Source of the DNA: Lytechinus pictus
Taxonomy: Eukaryota
Direction: 5' to 3'
NCBI RefSeq assembly: GCF_037042905.1
Contig: NC_087250.1
Coordinates: 7,752,001-7,816,000 of the forward strand
Length of the DNA stretch: 64,000 nucleotides
The position numbers and the translations under genes were made by a program. The notes below the pieces were generated by a model. That model searched no databases and had not been told where the DNA came from. It worked only from the letters and a program-made list of their open reading frames with translations. Of the stretch, positions 21,714-51,610 are shown piece after piece; the first letter of the stretch is position 1, and each line of letters starts with the position of its first letter.

Positions 21714-23699
21714 AAAGATACTAGGATGTTCATTGCAGAAGGTCATAAAAGCCCTGTTACACAAAGGTTGTAATCGATGTCGGATACAATCCTGATTGGT
21801 CATTGGGTGATTTCAAGTTCAGTGTTGACCTTCTGGTGTTGGTGTAAATGTAAATTTTTGCACGATTATACCACCAAATATAAGATGATCCCGAAAAGTC
21901 ATTCACTAGTTGTTGAGATGTCAATAAAGTGATCTGGATCACTTTTACAAAATCCGAATAAGTCTTGGAGCTAGGGGAAGCAATCCAACAAATTTTAACA
22001 CCCAACACCAAGGCCAACACCAGACTTGAAATCACTCAATGGTTAGTCTGTGAACAAAATGTGCATTCAACAATGATGTTGATTGGCCATGGCAAATTCT
22101 GTGATTGATTGCCCCTTCTGTGTAACAGTGCCCAAAACTTCTTTCCATCCGACCTTTATAATCATTTATTGATTACCCCCCCCCCCCCGTTTCAGTTGTG
22201 TTGGAATTTCTATTTTCATTATTGTTGGTGGCATGTTAGTCAAAGTTGTGCTTAGTTTAGTTTGGGAATTTATAGAAGATTTATTTTTAGTTTGTTTGCT
22301 AGTTTTAGTTGCAATATTTATACTTTGATTTCTGTTTTCATTCCTTCCCAAAATAAAATCTGCACTTAGCTTTTCTTTGGAAGGCATGGCAAGAGGCTGG
22401 TTGAAGAGGAGGACACAATAAAATGCATTTAAACTGCATCATTATAAACACATTCTGGTTGAATATAAAAACTTTTTTTTTAATTACCCTAACCCTGAAC
22501 TCCCCTCTTGATCAACATGTAGTGTAGCATTTCATATCCAGCCGCAGAGCTCATTTTTGGCCTTGATGAAGAAGAATAATTTACTTTATGTAAGTGCGTT
22601 TGAATGAACAATGAATGTTTGAAAACGCTTCTCAAAGGAAGCACAAAGACACCTACTCTCCTTCTACTTTGCCATGCCTTCATTTGCATAGATGGTCAAA
22701 TAATCTTTATGTTTCATTTTGCATTCAAACCCGCTTTATGTTCCTTTTGTCCCCATGATTTGTATTTTATGTTTCTTGTTACACAGTGTAAATGTTGTTT
22801 AAAATTTTATACAACGCTGTTTACTATAATATAGATAACAATGCTTAATTTATTTTGAATTATATTGAAAATTTAACTTTGTTATTTAAGAATGTAAACA
22901 CTTGTTTAAAACTTTTAAACAACTCCTGACACATTCATATTGTAAACAGTGATGTATACAAATTTTAAACAGCGATTTTACTCTGAATGTCCTTGTCTTT
23001 GTTTTGTCCTTTGTGTTTCCTGTTCAATGTCTTTAACACAAAAGTAACAAAGGGAAGTCAGTTAAGAGCTACTAACTTTAAAAGCTCATTTTGCCTCAAA
23101 GCAGCAGTAGAAGCGAAAGCTACATAAAATTTGCTGCTTTCTAGTTTTGTTATCCTTTCTATGCTGAATTATTATTTAAAAGTTTTATTTCTTTGGGCAT
23201 TGGGAAGAAATATGTGGAGAATGGGGTACACACTAAATCAAGATCGAATATTGAAAGGTTTGACACGCACTGGACTGGGGTCAACTGTAGGTCAATTTCA
23301 GTCTGTTTTATTCTTTGCCATATGTCATTATTAAGATAAATGAGGTCTGTTTCATGAAAGTTGTCTGCAATGACAAACTGTCTTTCTCCGACAGTTACCA
23401 TAGTAACAGTCAGAGGCCAGTGTTTCTGAGCCAATCAAAACCAAGGATTTGATTAAAATTGTCCGTGCTGACAACTCTCATGAAACACCCACAAGTTCTT
23501 GTGGTCTGTCATCGATCTTGTTGGGGTCCCATTGCCATCATCTGGGTGTGAAGAATCTTTCTTCCAGATGGGTTTGGAGGGTAAAGCCTTATCCCCTGGG
23601 AATTCAGATGTAGTCCTTTTGTGACTAGACCAAGTCTTTGTTGGGTCTGCTATAAGTAGCTGACCCTAGTGATAAGTTAACATGACATTGTTGTTACAG

Positions 23700-26600
23700 T
23701 GACTCCACAGCAAGGAGATGAAACTCAGAATGACCCAGATCCGGGGGAAGGGGAAGGAGAACCAACTGCTGCACCAACACCTGATGAACCAACAGGAGAA
23801 ACTGAAAAGGAAGTAGCAGAAGAAGAAACACCAGCAGAAGAAGTGCCAGCTGAACAAGAAACACCACCTGAAGAAGAAACACCAGAACAAGCACCAGCTG
23901 AAGTAGAGACCCAAGCTGGAGAAGAGACACAAGCTGAAAAAGAAACACAAGCTGAAGAAGCAACTCCAGCTGAAGAAGAGACACCTGCTGACGAGACACC
24001 AGCTGAAGAAGAAACACAAGCTGAAGAAGCAACACCAGCTAAGGAAGATACACCAGTCGAAGAACCAACATCAGCTGAAGAAGAGACACAAACTGAAGAA
24101 GAGACACCAGCTGAGGAACCAACACCACCTGTGCAAGAAAAACCAGCTGAAGAAGAGACACCAGCTGAGGATTCACCAGCTGAAGAAGCAACACCAGCTG
24201 AAGAAGAAACACAAGCTGAAGAAGAGACAAAAGCTGAAGAAGAGACGCAAACTGAAGAAGAGACACAAACTGAAGAAGCAACACCAGCTGTGGAAGAAAC
24301 GCCAGCTGAAGAAGAAACACCGTCTGAAGAGACACCTGCTGAAGAGACACCAGCTGAAGAAGAATCACAAACTGAAGAAGAGACACAAACTGGAGAACCA
24401 ACACCAGCAGTGGAAGAAACACCCGCTGAAGAAGAAACACCGGCTGAAGAGACACCAGCTGAAGAAGAAACACAAGCTGAAGAAGAGACACAAACTGAAG
24501 AACCAACACCAGCAGTGGAAGAAACATCCGCTACAGAAGAAACACCGGCTGAAAAGACACCTGCTGAAGAGACACCAGCTGAAGAAGAAACACAAGCTGA
24601 AGAAGAGACACAAACTGAAGAACTAACACCAGCAGTGGAAGAAACACCCGCTCAAGAAGAAACACCGGCTGAAGAGACACCTGCTGAAGAGACACCAGCT
24701 GAAGAAGAAACACAAGCTGAAGAAGAGACACAAACTGAAGAACTAACACCAGCAGTGGAAGAAACACCCGCTCAAGAAGAAACACCGGCTGAAGAGACAC
24801 CTGCTGAAGAGACACCAGCTGAACAAGCAACATTGACTGAAGAAGAAACGCAAGCTGAAGAAGCAACACCGGCTGACGAAGAGAAACCATCTGAAGAAGA
24901 GACACAAACTGAAGAGGAAACACCAGCTGTGGAAGAAACGCCCACTGAAGATGGAACACCGGCTGAAGAGACACCTGCTGAAGAGACACCAGCTGAAGAA
25001 GAAACACAAGCTGAAGTAGAGACACAAACTGAAGAACCAACACCAGCAGTGAAAGAAACACCGGCTGAAGAAGAAACACCCGCTGAAGAAGGAACACTGG
25101 CTGAAGAGACACCTGCTGAAGAGACACCAGCTGAAGAAGAAACACAAGCGGAAGAAGAGACACAAACTGAAGAACCAACACCAGCAGTGGAAGAAATTCC
25201 CGCTGAAAAAGAAACACCCGCTGAAGAAGAAACACAAGCTGAAGAAGAGACACAAACTGAAGAAGTAACACCAGCTGTGGAAGAAGCACCTGCTGAAGAA
25301 GAAACACCAGCTGAAGAGACACCTGCTGAACTAGCAACACTGGCTGAAGAAGAAACGCAAGCTGAAGAAGCAACACCGGCTGACGAAGAGAAACCATCTG
25401 AAGAAGAGACACTGGCTGAAGAACCAACACCAGCTGTGGAAGAAACACCCATTGCAGCAGAGACACTGGCTGAAGAAGCAACACCAGCTGGAGAAGAAAC
25501 ACAAGCTGGAGAAGAAACACAAGCTGAAGAAGCACCACCAGCTGAAGAAGAGACACAAGCTGGAGAAGCCACATCAGCTGAAGTAGAGACACCAGCTGAA
25601 GAACCAACACCAGCTGCAGAACCAACACCAGCTGAAGAAGAGACACTGGCTGAAGAAGAAATACAAGATGAAGAACCAACACCACCTGTGGAAGAAACAC
25701 CGGCTGAAGAAGAGACACAGGCTGAAGAAGAGACACAACCTGAAGAAGAGACACAACCTGAAGAAGATAAAACTGCTGTACAAGAGACACCAGCTGAAGA
25801 AGAAACACATGCTGAAAAAGAGACACCAGCTGAAGAAGAAACACCTGCTGAAGAAGAATCAAATTCTGAGGAAGTGGTTGAGAAGAGGGTGTCTGCCTCA
25901 GACTTGGTTGAAGAGTTTGGACTGACATTAGATGAGGGTGATCAGAGTGTATCTGTATTTGGTCAGGAAACTGAAAACAAATCTGGTGATGAAATGGTGG
26001 AAGAAGAAAAAGTTGTTCCAACGACACAAAATCCAGAGGAAGCAGATATCAGATTAGACTTTTTATGTAGCACAGAGGAAGCTGAAGTTACAGAGAAAGG
26101 TGCTGAGGAAATTGAAACAGAGGATGTTGTGGATGGGGTAAATATAGATGAAGTAGCAAGTACATTGGATGTCTCTCCCACAGGAGATGAGGGTGTTTCA
26201 ACAGAACAATCAGAAGAAGTTGATGCCAGTGAAGGAAAAGAAGCTGTGAAAGATGCAGAAGAAGAGTCATCACCTGTAACCCAGGAGGCTGATAATGTAG
26301 TAGAGGAAGTATCAGACAATGTGCCAGCAGCTGTTGAGACCGAGGTAGAAAAATTGAGCAAGGAAACAAAAGAGACAGAGGAGAAAGAGGATGAGACAGT
26401 GGAGGGATTACCCAAGGAAGCACCAGAAATTATTGTCACTAGTGAAGAGGCTATTGTGGATGAAGAAGCTGGTGATGATGAAGTGAAAGAGGATACTAAC
26501 CAGGCAGCTGAGGAAATGGCCACAGAAGAACAGGAGGTGGTGGAAGAGTCAGTGAGGGAAGAAATCACAAGGGATGTTGAAGCATGTCCTGAAGATTCAC

Positions 26601-27593
26601 CAGATGACGGGGACAAAGCAGTTAGTGAAGAAGTAGTGGAGGGTGATTCAGAACAAGTAGAAGTTATTGTTGCAGAAGCCGAACAAGCAAAAGAGGAAAT
26701 TATTCAGGCAACAGAGGAATCAGCCACAGAGGAACATGAGGTGGTTGAAGAGCCAGTGAGGGAAGAACTCACGGAAGATGTTGAAGCATGTCCTGAAGAT
26801 TCACCAGATGATGGGGACAAAGCAGTTAGTGAAGAAGTAGTGGAGGATGACTCAGAACAAGTAGAAGTTCTTCATGATGAAGCAGAACAAGCAGAAGAGG
26901 AAACAGTAAATGATGATGTGTGCCAAGATGCCTCTGAGGATACAAGTGATGAGGCAGTTACTGAAGAGGTGAAAGTGACAGACACAGAAGAAGCCACTGA
27001 GATACCATCACCTGAAAAAGAAGCTGTTACAGAAGTTGTTGAAGAAACTGTTGTGGATACTGTTGAACTGGAAACGGAAGCCACATTATCACAAGACATA
27101 GAGAAGGAAGTGGTTATTGATACAGACATTGCAACAGAGAATGTTGAAATTGAAGAGTCTACAGAGGAAACGGAGCAAGATGTTCCAGAGGAGGCAGACC
27201 AAGCGGTGGTAGAACAGGAAGCGGTAGAAGAAAAGACTGAGGAGGTGAGCCAGACTGAAGTAATAAAACAAGAGGTTGGAACGGAAACAGAACAGCTGCC
27301 ACCGTCAGAAGAAAGTGAAGAGGTGGCTGAAGTGATCCCTGTGGAACCCCAAGAAGAACTGAAGGAGGAATCTACTGAGGAGCCACAGACTGAAGAGCCA
27401 AAGACAGAATCAGTGGAAGAAACCAAAGAAGTACCAGAAGAGCCTGTTGAGGAACCTCCAAAGGACACACCAGTCAATGGTGTTTCTGAGGATACTGTCT
27501 TCAATGGGGTGCTTCTTAATGGACATGATGGTGGTCATCTTACCAATGGACATCATGTATCTGAAGACGACCACTTGACCAATGGTGATGAAG
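23700..27593 (+). CDS. Giant symmetric (phase 1-1, 3894 nt) exon encoding a Glu/Thr/Pro/Ala-rich repeat region
   Basis: Acceptor TTGTTGTTACAG|TG completes G|TG from the previous exon. 1298 codons without a stop. Donor GAAG|GTGAGT. Confidence 0.9.
23815..25860 (+). repeat. Coding minisatellite: 15/18-nt units (AEEETP/AEEETQ/AEETP) with a 120-bp higher-order repeat
   Basis: 24541-24660 and 24661-24780 are near-identical. Frame is preserved throughout. Confidence 0.95.
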
Positions 27594-29684
27594 GTGAGTC
27601 TGGAGGTTTTGTTTTTATTGAAAATGAGCTAGTCTGGTTTTTTCAATTGTGAGATGAAATTCAGCTTCGTAATTAATAAACAGAGAACCAGGACAATGGT
27701 ACATGCCCCCACCCCCCCAAAAAAAAGTATGAAAGATAGGAAAAAGGATATTTACAAACACTTTCTAGTTCGCCTTCTGTTAATGTTGTAAATAGAACAG
27801 TTCAAAGTGAAAATATCATTTTTTTAGAGAGAAAATTTGTTGAAAATCCTGATATTTGGTAGAGGTTACAAATATTTTTCTTTGTTTTGTTTTTTGAGGG
27901 GTGAGGTGATGAACCAAATAGCAGCTCACATTCGGAAAGCCAGACTAGCCACAATGTACAGATAAGATATCGATCTTAGATACTGCTCCAAATGAAACAA
28001 ATAATTCATATTAAATTGGTCGTTCCAAAATCACTTAAGCTCTTGCCTCTTGAGGAATTTAGTTAAAGATTTGTAATATGGGTTTCTAGTATCTCCCTTC
28101 CTCCTGGTATGTGATGTGTATTATACCTTCCCTCTATCATTAATTTCCATCCTTGTTTCACTCGATGCCTCATTCGTTCGTTCAATCATCAAAACCATAC
28201 CCCCCATGCAACGTGTTGCATGCATAGACTAGGACTTAGGATTGTATGACTCAGTTAGTTTCCTTATAAACGATCATTATCGTAGGCATGCCCATATGCT
28301 AAATCATAGTTGTTCCTTGCAAAACTTGCCAATAATATATCTTTGAAGAATGAAATAGATAGATCTCCCTTTTTTCCTGAGTTTAGAGGCATGTCTCCTG
28401 TAGACCAGATTTATATAGTCTCAGAAAAAGTAGACCATATCTATATAGTCTCGGCAAAATTAGACCAGATTCATATAGCTTTCAGAAAAAAAGTAGACCA
28501 AGTCTAGCAACTAATAGCTAATTTTGAATCATGACGATAAACCCCTCCCCCAATATTACAGTATTGTGAATAACCATTATCCACAAGACGCTTGATTTTT
28601 ATCTTTTGAATATATTAATTTTTTAACTTTTTCCTTGTACTCTTCCTAATTCAAACAATTTTTGGCAAATACAAAGTTTTAAATGCAATAGAATAAATCT
28701 ATATTAAAGCACTGTTTTTTGTGAATTCCATGCAAAAAAAAAATGATATAGATGTTCTTATAATGATCTCATAATGTTTTGTTTCGAGATTTTTTTTAAT
28801 GACTTTTTACAAAAAGTCAGTTGAGAAGACTTAAGAACTCGATCCACTTTACAAATTTATTAACGGTACTATGGTAGTGTATAGGAAAATTTGAACCTTA
28901 ATGCCCATCTGTATTTACCGTCATACTGAATCATTACAGGATATATAGTTTGGAGGAAATATGATGTAATTAAGGAAAACAGCTGATATGAATAGATACC
29001 CGGATAACCCAGATTCTTAATAATTCATGTCCATTTACCATGTGGTAATGATGTTTTTAATTATGTTATTTGTCAGTTCATGTATGTTTTGTTGGGGTGG
29101 AATTCATCATTTATTGATACATATGGGAGAGGGGGGAGTTAACGCTCTTCAAACTTTCCTGTGAAAAAAACCTACATGTTACGTCATCGAATTTCATACC
29201 AAAATCCGACAATTTTTGTGCGAAACTACACTCTCAGCATTTCTTGAAAAACCTGTAATATTAATTCTTATTATCTTACTATGAATAAAATCAAATTGAG
29301 TATGCTTGGTTGTTTTTTTGTAGCACACCATTTTCAGCTATGCTACTTGTAGTATCAATACTACCATATATTTGCAACAATAAATGGCTTTTATGAGATA
29401 GATGTATCTAGAATTTAGTTGCGCAAACTTTGAGCAAGAATATTTGGAAAGTGTTAACTCTCTCCAAGATGTCTGTAATTTGGTGTTTCATGGTATGGTT
29501 ATGTTCACACGGTCAACTAACATGGGTATGTTGTTTTGTTTTTCTTGTTTCTAACCCGTCCTTTTCCCCATCCGTCATTGTATTCACCCCATATCAACAT
29601 TGCCCCTCCTCCCGACCACTCCCATCACCCCCACGTCATTTAATGGAACAACCCACCCCTATGTCATGTAATGGAACGACCCAG

Positions 29685-33049: not shown

Positions 33050-33286
33050 TCATATAATAAAATACAAAAGAACAAGTGGGGATATGACATCATCAGCCCA
33101 CCTAATGAATATTCATAAAGACTAGAACTAGTCTAGTCTAGAACTGTTTCACCGGAATAAAGCAAATCTTTAAAATTAAATAACTTTGTTATTTGTTATC
33201 CGGTTTTGATCAAATTTTCAGCATTTTGCTCTGTGAAATTTTCTCTATTTATTGAGATATATATGTTTCCAGCCTGGACCACCCCT
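33050..33286. mobile_element. Right end of a Kolobok-like MITE
   Basis: Ends ...GGACCACCCCT|TTAA. The subterminal ATCCGGTTTTGATCAAATTTTCAGCA resembles 56070-56100. Confidence 0.6.
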
Positions 33287-34569
33287 TTAAGCATCACCAT
33301 CTGAAACGACTTGAACATCAGACCTTGAAACTCTGCATAAATTTTGCAAACTCCCCCATGTAGCTTGAATTACAGGTGCACACCCCAGTGCCGAGTTTTG
33401 CTTTCAATTAAAAAGTTTTACAAACTTGATATTTGTTGACATGTATGAACTGGGGAAATCCCCTTTGATACCACATCAAATTCTTTCCATTGTAGAATTA
33501 CATTTTATCCCACTTTTTTATTACTATTTTCAATGGGTAAGAAATGATGCATGGCAAACTCTTGTCAGCATACAATCTGTTTATTGCAGTCATGAAAATA
33601 GTCTGCAAAAACAGACCTTTGGTTTCCATATACTGCATAATGCAGGGTCTGAAATAGGAGACTAGATTCACTCATGTTCTACTGTGGCTGCTTGTTTGAC
33701 ATAGCATGGACATGGACATAGGTCCATGGACACAGACACAGAGTTTGGGGTCTGCTAGTCTCCACACCAGACATGGTATTAGTTGTTAGTGTTAAATTAG
33801 AGTCTGTGCTAGAAGACTAGTCATGATACTAGTTTATCCCCTCAAATCATGGTATATTAGAAATGTATCCCTGCTGAAGCATGACACCTCATGGAATAGT
33901 CATTACTATGTCATCACCATGTCGTTAGTTTCTTTGATCATTATTCAGTGCATTCACACTGCAAAAATCTCCGCTTTTATGCAGGAATCTTCTTGCTACA
34001 TGGTGTAGAAGCCCTATACCATAAAAACATTGAATGGTTGCGTTTTTTGTCAGTCTGAATGCCACAAAGAAACACATTTTTTTACATATTGTACAATGCA
34101 TGATTTAGTATCACTTCAGAGATAATCAAGGTGAAAAATTGTGAGTCCTACATGTAGTCTCCTAGTGCAGAAACATGGTTCTGGAGCAAACATGTTTAAC
34201 CATTGCACAAATTTGCGCAATTAATGAAGGCTTTCGAACCCTACATGTATAACCAAAACATGATTGCATGTACTTCATCTCAAGCGTGCCCTGAAATGCA
34301 TTTTGATCGGCAATTTTATACCAGCGTAAAGTTGATAAATTCAGCCATAGTGAAAAATTACTCTGCCCAAGATATGACACACTAATTCAAGATTATTGAT
34401 TGCTAGTCATGGGTTTCTACTTGATTTTACCACAGCTGAAGGCTTGATTAATGTTGAGGAAATGGCTAAGGCTTTCATGATATGATTTCTTGTGAGATAT
34501 TCTCCTGCTGTATTAATAGATGCTGGTTGATATTCTCTGTAGACCTGTAAATCCTCAAATTATTAGACA

Positions 34570-35047: not shown

Positions 35048-35570
35048 TATATGTATTTGAAGAGTCTCAGGGATCCCATTCTCGTCTACTTCCTTAAATT
35101 AGTTGAGTGGAAACCAGTTAACATGTAAAGGAACGCTCAAAGCGTTCCTAAAAGCAACCGAAAGTGGTCTTCCTAAAACTAGGGTAGTTTGGAAAACCAC
35201 CTCATGATTTGATTTTCAAGACAAAAAGCAATCGAAATTGGTCTTCCCAAAACTAGGGTAGTTTGGAAAACCACCTACATCTTGGTGTGATTTTCAAGAC
35301 TGCTATGCCTTGGTGAAATAGTTTAAATGTAGGTGAGGACACAACCGTTTTTCGGGGAGCGATCTCCGCACAGAAGTACACGAGTGTGAGCATGCTACGT
35401 GCGCTACTCTGTACACACTTCTTGACCAAGTGAAACTACTATTATCAACTGTTATTAGATTTGGTATAGTGACGGGTTGTGCATGTAGAAATCAATCTTG
35501 TTTTGAGAACTGATAGTGCTCTGCTGCCCTCTTGTGCTGTAATACCATATAGTTGCCCAGGCAGAGTGTG

Positions 35571-35749
35571 TGTGTGTATTTGAGTTTTGTCAGACGTGTA
35601 TCAATCAGATATGATTATTTACATCTGGGACCGACTTTTAACGTCACCATCCGAAAGACGTGACCAGGGCTCGAACCCTGAACCTCTGCATCAATTTGTA
35701 ACTTCCCCACACAGCTTGGATTACAGGCGCACGCCACAACGCCCAGTTT
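35571..35749 (-). mobile_element. 7SL(SRP)-RNA-derived SINE, copy 1
   Basis: Minus strand begins CTGGGCGTTGTGGCGTGCGCCTGTAATCCAAGCT (7SL Alu-domain-like). B box GGTTCGAGCCC and (CA)n tail. Perfect 11-bp TSD GGCAGAGTGTG (35560-35570, 35750-35760). Confidence 0.85.
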
Positions 35750-35803
35750 GGCAGAGTGTGCTATTACATACCAAATTTGAATGAGAAAAAAGGGGGTATT
35801 AAA

Positions 35804-49171: not shown

Positions 49172-49669
49172 GGTTCCATGACATTTACTCCGGCGACAAT
49201 TGCTCCGGCGACAATTTCTCCGATGGAAAATATGCATGTACATACCGGTGTGTTGGCTCAGTTGGTAGAGCGTCCGTCTCACAACCGGGAGGTCGGGGGT
49301 TCAAACCCCGACGGCGTCAGACCAAAAGACGTTAAAAGATGGAAGTTGCTGCTACCCTGTTTGGCGATCAATGATTAAATGGATAGATCATCGTCGATCT
49401 GGCGCTGCACAGCGGCTGCCTGGCCCACGATCAATTGGGCAAAGCAAATTTTCGGAGTATTTCATTTCATGTCTATTTCGAACAATGAAATATGGAATTT
49501 CATCATCATGTTAAGCCAAACATAAAATCTAACCTCCAAATCTAAATAAACCCTTATCATTATTGCATTATTCTGAACCAAAAACTCTAATGCAATCCAA
49601 ACTCGAACCCGACGCCCTCTGAGATATCAGGATCGGAGCAAATGTCCCAGGAGCAAATGTCATGTCACT
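49172..49669. mobile_element. MITE with 8-bp TSD, hosting a SINE
   Basis: GTTTTAAG|GGTTCCATGACATTT...AAATGTCATGTCACT|GTTTTAAG. Confidence 0.8.
49244..49509 (+). mobile_element. tRNA-derived SINE
   Basis: A box TGGCTCAGTTGG (49254-49265), B box GGTTCAAACCC (49298-49308), tRNA-unrelated body, (CAT)n end. Confidence 0.85.
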
Positions 49670-51434: not shown

Positions 51435-51610
51435 GTGTGTGTGTGTGTATTTGAGTTTTGTCAGACGTGTATCAATCAGATATGATTATTTACGTCTGGG
51501 ACCGACCTTTAACGTCACCATCCGAAAGACGTGACCAGGGCTCGAACCTCTGCATCAATTTGTAACTTCCCCACATAGCTTGGATTACAGGCGCACGCCA
51601 CAACGCCCAG
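51435..51610 (-). mobile_element. 7SL(SRP)-RNA-derived SINE, copy 2
   Basis: Differs from copy 1 by 3 substitutions and a 7-bp indel. (CA)n tail. Possible 6-bp TSD AGAGAT (51429-51434, 51620-51625). Confidence 0.85.

Follow-up and report, generated by a model that had tools for sequence, protein, structure and literature searches.

A composite SINE in the sea urchin Lytechinus pictus with a 47-nt head that points to a host 7SL RNA gene

Organization of the element in the window

The DNA analyzed here is a stretch of 64,000 nt of Lytechinus pictus (contig NC_087250.1, positions 7,752,001 to 7,816,000), hereafter the window. At positions 35571-35747 of its minus strand lies a short interspersed element (SINE) of ~170 nt plus an (AC)n tail, which is flanked by the 11-bp repeat CACACTCTGCC and whose 5' part resembles 7SL RNA, the RNA that the signal recognition particle (SRP) contains. 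All coordinates without a further label are positions in the window, and the minus-strand element was read directly from the sequence. A preliminary description, made from the letters alone, had assigned the DNA to an invertebrate deuterostome. This is borne out by two adjacent exons that match Pfam Bindin at 236.7 and 53.1 bits, a domain found in none of 14 control genomes. The same description had recognized a retroposed element on the minus strand, and its start AAACTGGGCGTTGTGGCGTGCGCCTGTAATCCAAGCT, its B box GGTTCGAGCCC, its tail and the CACACTCTGCC repeat are indeed all present on direct reading. From 5' to 3', the element and its flanks consist of the following parts:

35750-35760 (-): 5' copy of the target-site duplication (TSD) CACACTCTGCC, by direct reading, the 11-nt word common to the flanks of head and tail
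35701-35747 (-): 7SL head of 47 nt, by its match to Rfam Metazoa_SRP (30.0 bits, model positions 1-48) and by alignment with host 7SL
35628-35700 (-): body, which holds the B-box hairpin and the motif GACGTTAAAAG
35591-35627 (-): 3' hairpin with a 7-bp outer stem CAGAUGU/ACGUCUG and a 6-bp inner stem, by folding against shuffles
35571-35590 (-): terminal ACAAAACTCAAAT and, after it, the microsatellite tail (AC)n, by direct reading and comparison of copies
35560-35570 (-): 3' copy of the TSD, by direct reading and flank-word scoring

The TSD, earlier described as a perfect 11-bp repeat, is found at both 35750-35760 and 35560-35570, but the first CACA of its 3' copy is inseparable from the (AC)n tail and the unambiguous repeat is reduced to 7 nt. 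The head contains both strands of helix 2 (ACU/AGU), helices 3 and 4 and the UGUAAU turn, which together make up the Alu domain's complete 5' domain. In the body, the B box at 35667-35677 (-) is positioned ~70 nt from the 5' end of the element within a perfect hairpin, and it fits the tRNA-type consensus, GGTTCGANNCC, perfectly. The majority sequence of the family has a 7-nt duplication at this hairpin, and T is never repeated four or more times in a row in the family core. The 3' hairpin is formed by the ~37 nt that precede ACAAAACTCAAAT(AC)n, and its two-tier fold has a z-score of -2.21 in the window copy (4 of 200 shuffles as good) and of -2.54 in a second copy, L054 (2 of 200 shuffles as good; L-numbers label the genome loci that were compared with the window element). 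A 3' stem-loop plus a microsatellite is the typical layout of SINEs and long interspersed elements (LINEs) with a stem-loop-recognizing reverse transcriptase (RT), as established for stringent LINEs such as L2, and the hairpin is presumed to be the recognition element for the partner LINE. All listed copies end in ...CTCAAAT(AC)n, with a value of n that differs among copies.

Relation of the head to host 7SL RNA

The match of the window copy to Metazoa_SRP has an E-value of 3.7e-6 (401 nt searched). The same model matches the SINE in 7 of 12 further copies that were picked independently of the head (18.8-32.6 bits). These head-independent copies (L043-L054) are the first 12 tail-motif matches in genome order and were not used to build the majority sequence. 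The tRNA model (RF00005) of Rfam gives no match on the window copy at E<=10 and none on the 12 other copies at E<=1, and ARAGORN calls no tRNA genes in the window. The preference for an SRP over a tRNA origin of the head, already expressed in the preliminary description, is thus upheld.

A profile search of the genome (811.7-Mb assembly, 368 contigs) with Metazoa_SRP, in which the best 25 of ~6077 first-look candidates were scored, revealed at least seven full-length 7SL genes with 272.2-282.7 bits; the other 18 scored matches, with 31.9-34.9 bits, are SINE copies. The 7SL genes start with ACCGGGCGTTGTGGCGTGCGCCTGTAATCCAGCT in six cases and with ACTGGGCG... in the case of the L037 gene. Alignment of the 47-nt SINE head with the seven genes gives 40-41 identical columns out of 48. 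Over its first 30 nt, the SINE agrees with the L037 gene at all 30 positions and with the other six genes at 29. The three nucleotides by which helix 2 closes in the Rfam consensus structure are ACU/AGU in the SINE and in the L037 gene only, whereas the other six genes have ACC/GGU. Because this double change preserves the pairing of helix 2 and is common to the L037 gene and the SINE, the comparison points to an L037-like 7SL gene as the source of the SINE head. Against human 7SL, the 27 of 35 matches counted by hand at the 5' end in the preliminary description became 27 of 36 in a by-eye recount with the quoted string, a close value. The host genes, to which an alignment had been recommended, are a far closer match to the head than human 7SL is, which also shows that its origin is independent of Alu.

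The first 60 nt of the element share 46-47 of 62-63 columns (73-75%) with each of the seven host 7SL genes, an identity that is carried by the first 47 nt, the following 13 nt being unrelated to 7SL. Past nt 47, the body of the family majority sequence aligns with the remaining 7SL at a local score of 30, compared to a shuffle mean of 20.9 (sd 3.6); 11 of 500 dinucleotide shuffles reach this score, and the reverse-complement control is at 29. The earlier observation that the sequence leaves 7SL after ~45 nt therefore holds. According to the Rfam structure line, the break falls on the boundary to helix 5, and the helix-5 pairs are mostly non-standard. A more extended homology was considered, as GAGGTTC.GGGTT and CCTGGTCACGTC resembled 7SL nt 48-110 by eye, and was rejected since the score of 30 is non-significant. 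With 18.8-32.6 bits, versus 272-283 for the seven real genes, the copies are neither 7SL genes nor full-length retrocopies. Judged from its sequence, the head is that of a SINE1 in the sense of Repbase, i.e., 7SL-derived.

The head also gives weak matches to Rfam mir-1268 (window 35698-35749 (-), L051:1363-1415 and L052:1615-1666; 23-28.8 bits, gathering score 83). This family lies in Alu sequence, and the matches reflect the likeness of the head to 7SL; they are not evidence of a microRNA.

Family size, age and marks of retroposition

A DNA search of the genome gave 1692 first-look candidates, and the 48 matches listed are 89-100% identical and lie on many contigs. Motifs were counted at up to two mismatches, with reversed-pattern controls that gave 0 each time. 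Genome-wide, the 27-mer of the head has 1307 matches (the seven 7SL genes included), the 33-mer across the head/body junction 742 and the 27-mer of the tail 1336, so that head and tail occur at a ratio of ~1:1; matches are present on all large contigs. A near full-length element with its head was found at 12 of 12 loci picked by the tail alone, from which it follows that head and tail belong to one family and that most copies are full length. In agreement with the multi-copy family with TSDs that had been anticipated, the genome contains ~1,300 mostly full-length dispersed copies that are ~1% diverged, some of them with clear TSDs. Compared to the majority sequence, the 12 head-independent copies carry 0-4.2% substitutions (median 1.2%), and length variants of 7-9 nt or 30 nt occur inside them. 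Four of the 30 best-match loci equal the majority sequence, although these loci helped to build it and are not independent. Given the divergence of ~1%, the family may still be active. The segment L045:262-340 is only a degraded, 5'-truncated copy.

Within the window, a 22-nt head motif is found at three sites with up to three mismatches, versus none in 100 shuffles. Next to the element described above, these sites belong to two further copies:

51449-51610 (-): second copy, the 'copy 2' of the preliminary description (head motif 51578-51599), 94% identical and without one 7-nt GGTTCRG unit
33290-33396 (-): old 5' fragment (head motif 33363-33384), identical to the majority sequence in 83 of 111 columns (75%), with the 7SL head kept

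The old copy at 33.3 kb is interrupted at its own TTAA by a fragment of an element with terminal inverted repeats (TIRs). It was initially a candidate for an older subfamily with a different tail, which was rejected, as this 'tail' is the fragment of the separate high-copy TIR element. The 75% identity of the 33.3-kb copy, together with a subfamily of 87-88% identity, indicates that the lineage predates the recent burst. Copies of this older subfamily are located at L031:875-1039 and 1288-1452, L035:1292-1456 and L036:1313-1456, with 7SL genes starting from 1501 in each locus; their identity is 87-88% in L031 and L035 and 77% in L036, and their linker is 10 nt shorter. On contig C10, an older-subfamily copy lies ~45 nt upstream of each of three clustered 7SL genes, in the same orientation. 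Since the upstream flank is common to all three, a single insertion was duplicated along with the 7SL gene unit. Upstream promoter elements of 7SL would be expected in the zone that these C10 copies occupy. On contig C1, exact matches to the head 27-mer occur at 22739240, 22741771 and 22744295 (+), ~2.5 kb apart, and may represent a SINE-containing tandem repeat or further unscored 7SL-like units.

Conservation among the copies begins sharply at AACTGGG, one or two A before the start of 7SL RNA, and the 5' ends are precise. TSDs were tested on copies of at least 140 nt: of 45 such copies, 44 were parsable, and in 36 no further unit adjoins the element. The score was the length of the word common to the 25 nt of flank preceding the head and 28 nt spanning the end of the tail. 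A flank word of at least 8 nt is found in 6 of the 36 copies, compared to 2.2% of mismatched-flank controls. Clear TSDs that abut both ends measure 11 nt in the window copy, 12 nt in L006, 10 nt in L022 and 8 nt in L007 and L038, and many copies have short TSDs or none detectable. A part of the loci (L021, L027, L028, L030 and L039) contain head-to-tail arrays of 2-4 units with identical short junctions, such as (AC)n-CTT-AACTGGG; the array L021:1151-1850 has four units. At these loci, local amplification has turned the SINE into a tandem repeat. In addition, L004/L017 and L031/L035/L036 are segmental duplicates.

Neighboring elements and LINEs of the genome

At 49247-49319 (+), and continuing to ~49400, the window contains a head that resembles a tRNA (36.8 bits with the Rfam tRNA model, no call by ARAGORN) and is followed by ...GACGTTAAAAGATGG..., probably a tRNA-derived SINE of another family. 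A derivation of the body of the 7SL-headed SINE from this element was considered because both have GACGTTAAAAG ~20 nt after the B box, and it was rejected on a score of 25 that is reached by 193 of 1000 shuffles. The TIR element (window 33165-33292 (-); loci L061-L074) has 1718 first-look candidates and terminal inverted repeats of ~127 nt that start with TTAAAGGGATGGTCCAGGCTGG; in most loci its arms are ~500-600 bp apart. It looks like a TTAA-targeting miniature inverted-repeat transposable element. A resemblance of its first ~20 nt to GTTAAAGGTCGGTCCCAG, a motif of the SINE body, may be chance.

A search of the genome for RVT_1 gave 12,239 candidates and, among those listed, at least 150 matches. 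Many stop-free RT open reading frames (ORFs) fall into groups of equal length (e.g., 1258-1269, 1021-1022 and 1008 codons) on many contigs, which suggests that several LINE families have been active recently in this genome. The one LINE 3' end that was compared, L088, ends in poly(A) and has a tail unrelated to the SINE. Elsewhere in the window, an open frame of 1323 codons at 23681-27652 (+) includes an 18-nt unit repeated in tandem ~117 times (23815-25858, 74% matches), as well as a 204-nt repeat at 26486-26904, with long ORFs on both strands. This and other ORFs of the window have no Pfam match, and the frame at 23681-27652 probably represents an acidic exon of repetitive sequence or else a minisatellite.

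Discussion

In this study, we propose that the window element is a copy of a young, probably still active composite sea urchin SINE whose head consists of the first ~47 nt of host 7SL RNA, and that this SINE1 was born independently of the mammalian and hagfish ones. We consider this proposal very probable as a whole. The birth of the family may have taken place when an RT that was copying an older SINE or a LINE-tailed RNA jumped to 7SL RNA as a new template and continued as far as the 5' end of the latter, an event that would explain the exact 7SL 5' end of the element. Chimeric SINEs have been proposed to arise by template switching (PMC7245038). RNA polymerase III (Pol III) would transcribe the element from the 7SL-derived box A region, which corresponds to positions 6-15 in human 7SL (PMC7245038), together with the downstream B box. 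The head of the element would then bind SRP9/14 and thereby carry the RNA to ribosomes that translate the partner LINE. For Alu, retrotransposition requires the 46-nt 5' Alu domain, which also associates with SRP9/14 (PMC11760393). SRP14 is encoded by the host (30.6 bits in one exon). Finally, a stringent non-L1 LINE would recognize the 3' hairpin and (AC)n, and insertion would occur by target-primed reverse transcription.

Several observations weigh against this proposal. True 7SL homology is limited to 47 nt, the SRP scores on the SINE copies (18.8-32.6 bits) lie far under the gathering score of 70, and 5 of the 12 head-independent copies are without an SRP match at E<=1; sub-threshold scores are expected for a 47-nt fragment of a model with 299 positions. 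Folding of the whole element is no better than that of shuffles (z -0.97) and folding of the head is unremarkable (z 0.07; z 0.68 for the 5' end of the L037 gene). An identical two-hairpin fold is predicted for the SINE head and the 5' end of L037 7SL, such short folds not being better than shuffles. The proposal does not account for the origin of the B box and the body. Clear TSDs are a minority: a flank word of at least 6 nt is found in 16 of 36 copies versus 21% of controls, with both figures inflated by overlap with (AC)n. The tandem arrays and segmental duplicates imply that DNA-level duplication contributed to the copy number. The partner LINE was not found with patterns that join the tail to non-SINE upstream sequence at three boundaries (5, 11 and 2 matches), a type of search that less similar LINE tails would escape; the matches inspected are deleted, truncated or interrupted SINE copies, and the tail-match loci L082 and L084 are without long ORFs.

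The role of the head may be read differently, as only a source of a Pol III promoter (box A) and of a defined 5' end, with SRP9/14 binding being irrelevant to mobility. SINEs with a tRNA head do well without SRP9/14, a relaxed L1 is evidently not the partner, and the (AC)n and 3' hairpin tail may wholly decide the choice of template. Box A alone, however, would need just ~15 nt, whereas the break coincides precisely with the end of the structured 5' domain, both strands of helix 2 being kept. Moreover, the 87-88% identical C10 subfamily still has, by eye, UCC/GGG in helix 4 and ACU/AGU in helix 2, and an equal domain of 46 nt is needed for both mobility and SRP9/14 association of Alu (PMC11760393). 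We regard a purely promoter-providing head as unlikely, but as an explanation to be taken seriously.

There is a comparable, minor chance that the family is already catalogued in Repbase or Dfam, possibly as SINE2 or as unknown, in which case only its novelty falls. Libraries of sea urchin SINEs date back to 2005 (SINE2-1_SP to SINE2-6_SP, cited in PMC4758252), and automated Dfam libraries span many genomes. On the other hand, specialist papers of 2020 and February 2026 place 7SL SINEs only in supraprimates and hagfish, to which the shrew mole was added (PMC7245038; PMC13023118), and a full-text literature search gave no sea urchin 7SL SINE.

It is very improbable that DNA duplication, without any retroposon family, has spread the copies as 7SL pseudogene fragments or as a satellite. 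Such an origin would account for the tandem arrays of 2-4 units with identical junctions, the segmental duplicates and the many copies without a detectable TSD. It is contradicted by the layout of head, body and tail at hundreds of unrelated sites on all large contigs, by the variable tail length, the precise 5' ends and the TSDs of 8-12 nt that abut head and tail in several copies, and by the nearly equal counts of head and tail (1307 versus 1336). An ordinary tRNA-derived SINE (SINE2) with a merely 7SL-like head could be imagined from the perfect tRNA-type B box in a hairpin ~70 nt from the 5' end and from the tRNA-derived nature of the sea urchin SINEs mentioned in the available literature (PMC4758252), yet it is scarcely credible, and for the head already refuted, as neither Rfam (window copy at E<=10, 12 other copies at E<=1) nor ARAGORN detects a tRNA and the head is identical to a host 7SL gene at 30 of 30 positions.

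The composite SINE with a 7SL head can be compared with formal definitions and known families. SINEBase requires of a SINE that it overlap tRNA, 5S or 7SL RNA for at least 60 nt at an identity of at least 60% (PMC3531059). The sea urchin family falls within these limits as a short (<1 kb) dispersed repeat, by its copy number and by its 73-75% identity with 7SL over 60 nt. It is also non-tandem, with a minority of copies in tandem arrays, and bears the retroposition marks of a SINE, namely TSDs in some copies and a variable (AC)n 3' repeat. It differs from the Alu/B1 type, as no significant 7SL 3' part is present in the body and the listed copies have no A-rich or poly(A) tail, and from SINE2 by the lack of a recognizable tRNA head.

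The preliminary description knew 7SL-derived SINEs from Euarchontoglires and hagfish only. This distribution has since been widened by the Urop SINE of the shrew mole, added by Vassetzky et al. 2026, who state that no 7SL SINE had been reported beyond supraprimates and hagfish (PMC13023118). The hagfish SINE1-1_EBu had been presented by Kojima 2020 as the first SINE1 outside Euarchontoglires (PMC7245038). Similar to the monomers of Alu/B1 (FLAM, PB1) and to Urop, the sea urchin SINE has a head that begins at the 7SL 5' end, comprises the 5' Alu domain with the U-turn and includes the box A region, with a B box ~70-80 nt downstream. All 7SL SINEs are said to follow a central deletion of ~183 nt in 7SL (PMC13023118), and Alu/B1 and Urop retain both 7SL ends around this deletion, contain nothing but 7SL sequence, carry poly(A) at their end and depend on L1. 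The sea urchin SINE, in contrast, has only nt 1-47 of an echinoid 7SL, joined to an unrelated body, a 3' hairpin and (AC)n. The hagfish SINE1-1_EBu likewise represents an independent 7SL-headed birth outside mammals, is a chimera of 7SL and non-7SL sequence with a microsatellite tail, and is young, with ~10^3 copies (2363 in hagfish; PMC7245038). Yet, its 7SL share comprises 96 nt from the 5' part as well as the 3' part, i.e., the full Alu domain, and it has an RTE-derived tail with (AAC)n (PMC7245038).

Tu-type SINEs of the tree shrew and GarnAlu of the bushbaby also combine 7SL sequence and a tRNA-type B box in one element, but these are whole SINE1 and SINE2 monomers fused within the Alu lineage (PMC7245038), whereas the sea urchin SINE has no detectable tRNA homology and takes its 7SL part directly from a host gene. 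The closest parallel in extent (~46-47 nt) and in predicted two-hairpin fold is the minimal 5' Alu domain of 46 nt (Moldovan, Yin and Moran 2024 preprint, PMC11760393). That domain is an engineered deletion construct tested with human L1, the sea urchin SINE a natural echinoderm element with a different LINE.

The 7SL-derived SINEs comprise Alu, which has been studied more closely than any other SINE, yet independent origins of 7SL SINEs are extremely rare, being confined to supraprimates, hagfish and, since 2026, the shrew mole, and an echinoderm family extends the phenomenon to invertebrates. Our literature search, outside of which lie Repbase, Dfam, paper supplements and other echinoderm genomes, found no 7SL-derived SINE described in sea urchins or in any invertebrate. 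On a practical level, Alu-like heads in sea urchin assemblies could pass for human contamination or be mislabelled by repeat classifiers.

We further put forward, as a possibility that we hold tentatively and would not yet bet on, that this may be the first invertebrate 7SL-headed SINE and a separate birth of the Alu strategy, which would keep only the SRP9/14-binding 5' domain of ~47 nt and be driven by a stringent, hairpin-recognizing non-L1 LINE. The families form a natural deletion series, in which the other lineages have kept the whole Alu domain and the sea urchin SINE only its 5' domain. The retained segment matches the 46-nt segment that is necessary for Alu mobility and SRP9/14 association in cell assays (PMC11760393). 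If the family is still active in this classic laboratory animal, SRP9/14 docking and 3'-hairpin recognition would be testable with a non-L1 partner. If the tentative proposal is true, nature would have reached the minimal domain defined by deletion mapping of human Alu, and SRP9/14-mediated docking on ribosomes would be a general route for SINEs to the nascent RT of a LINE, whatever the LINE clade.

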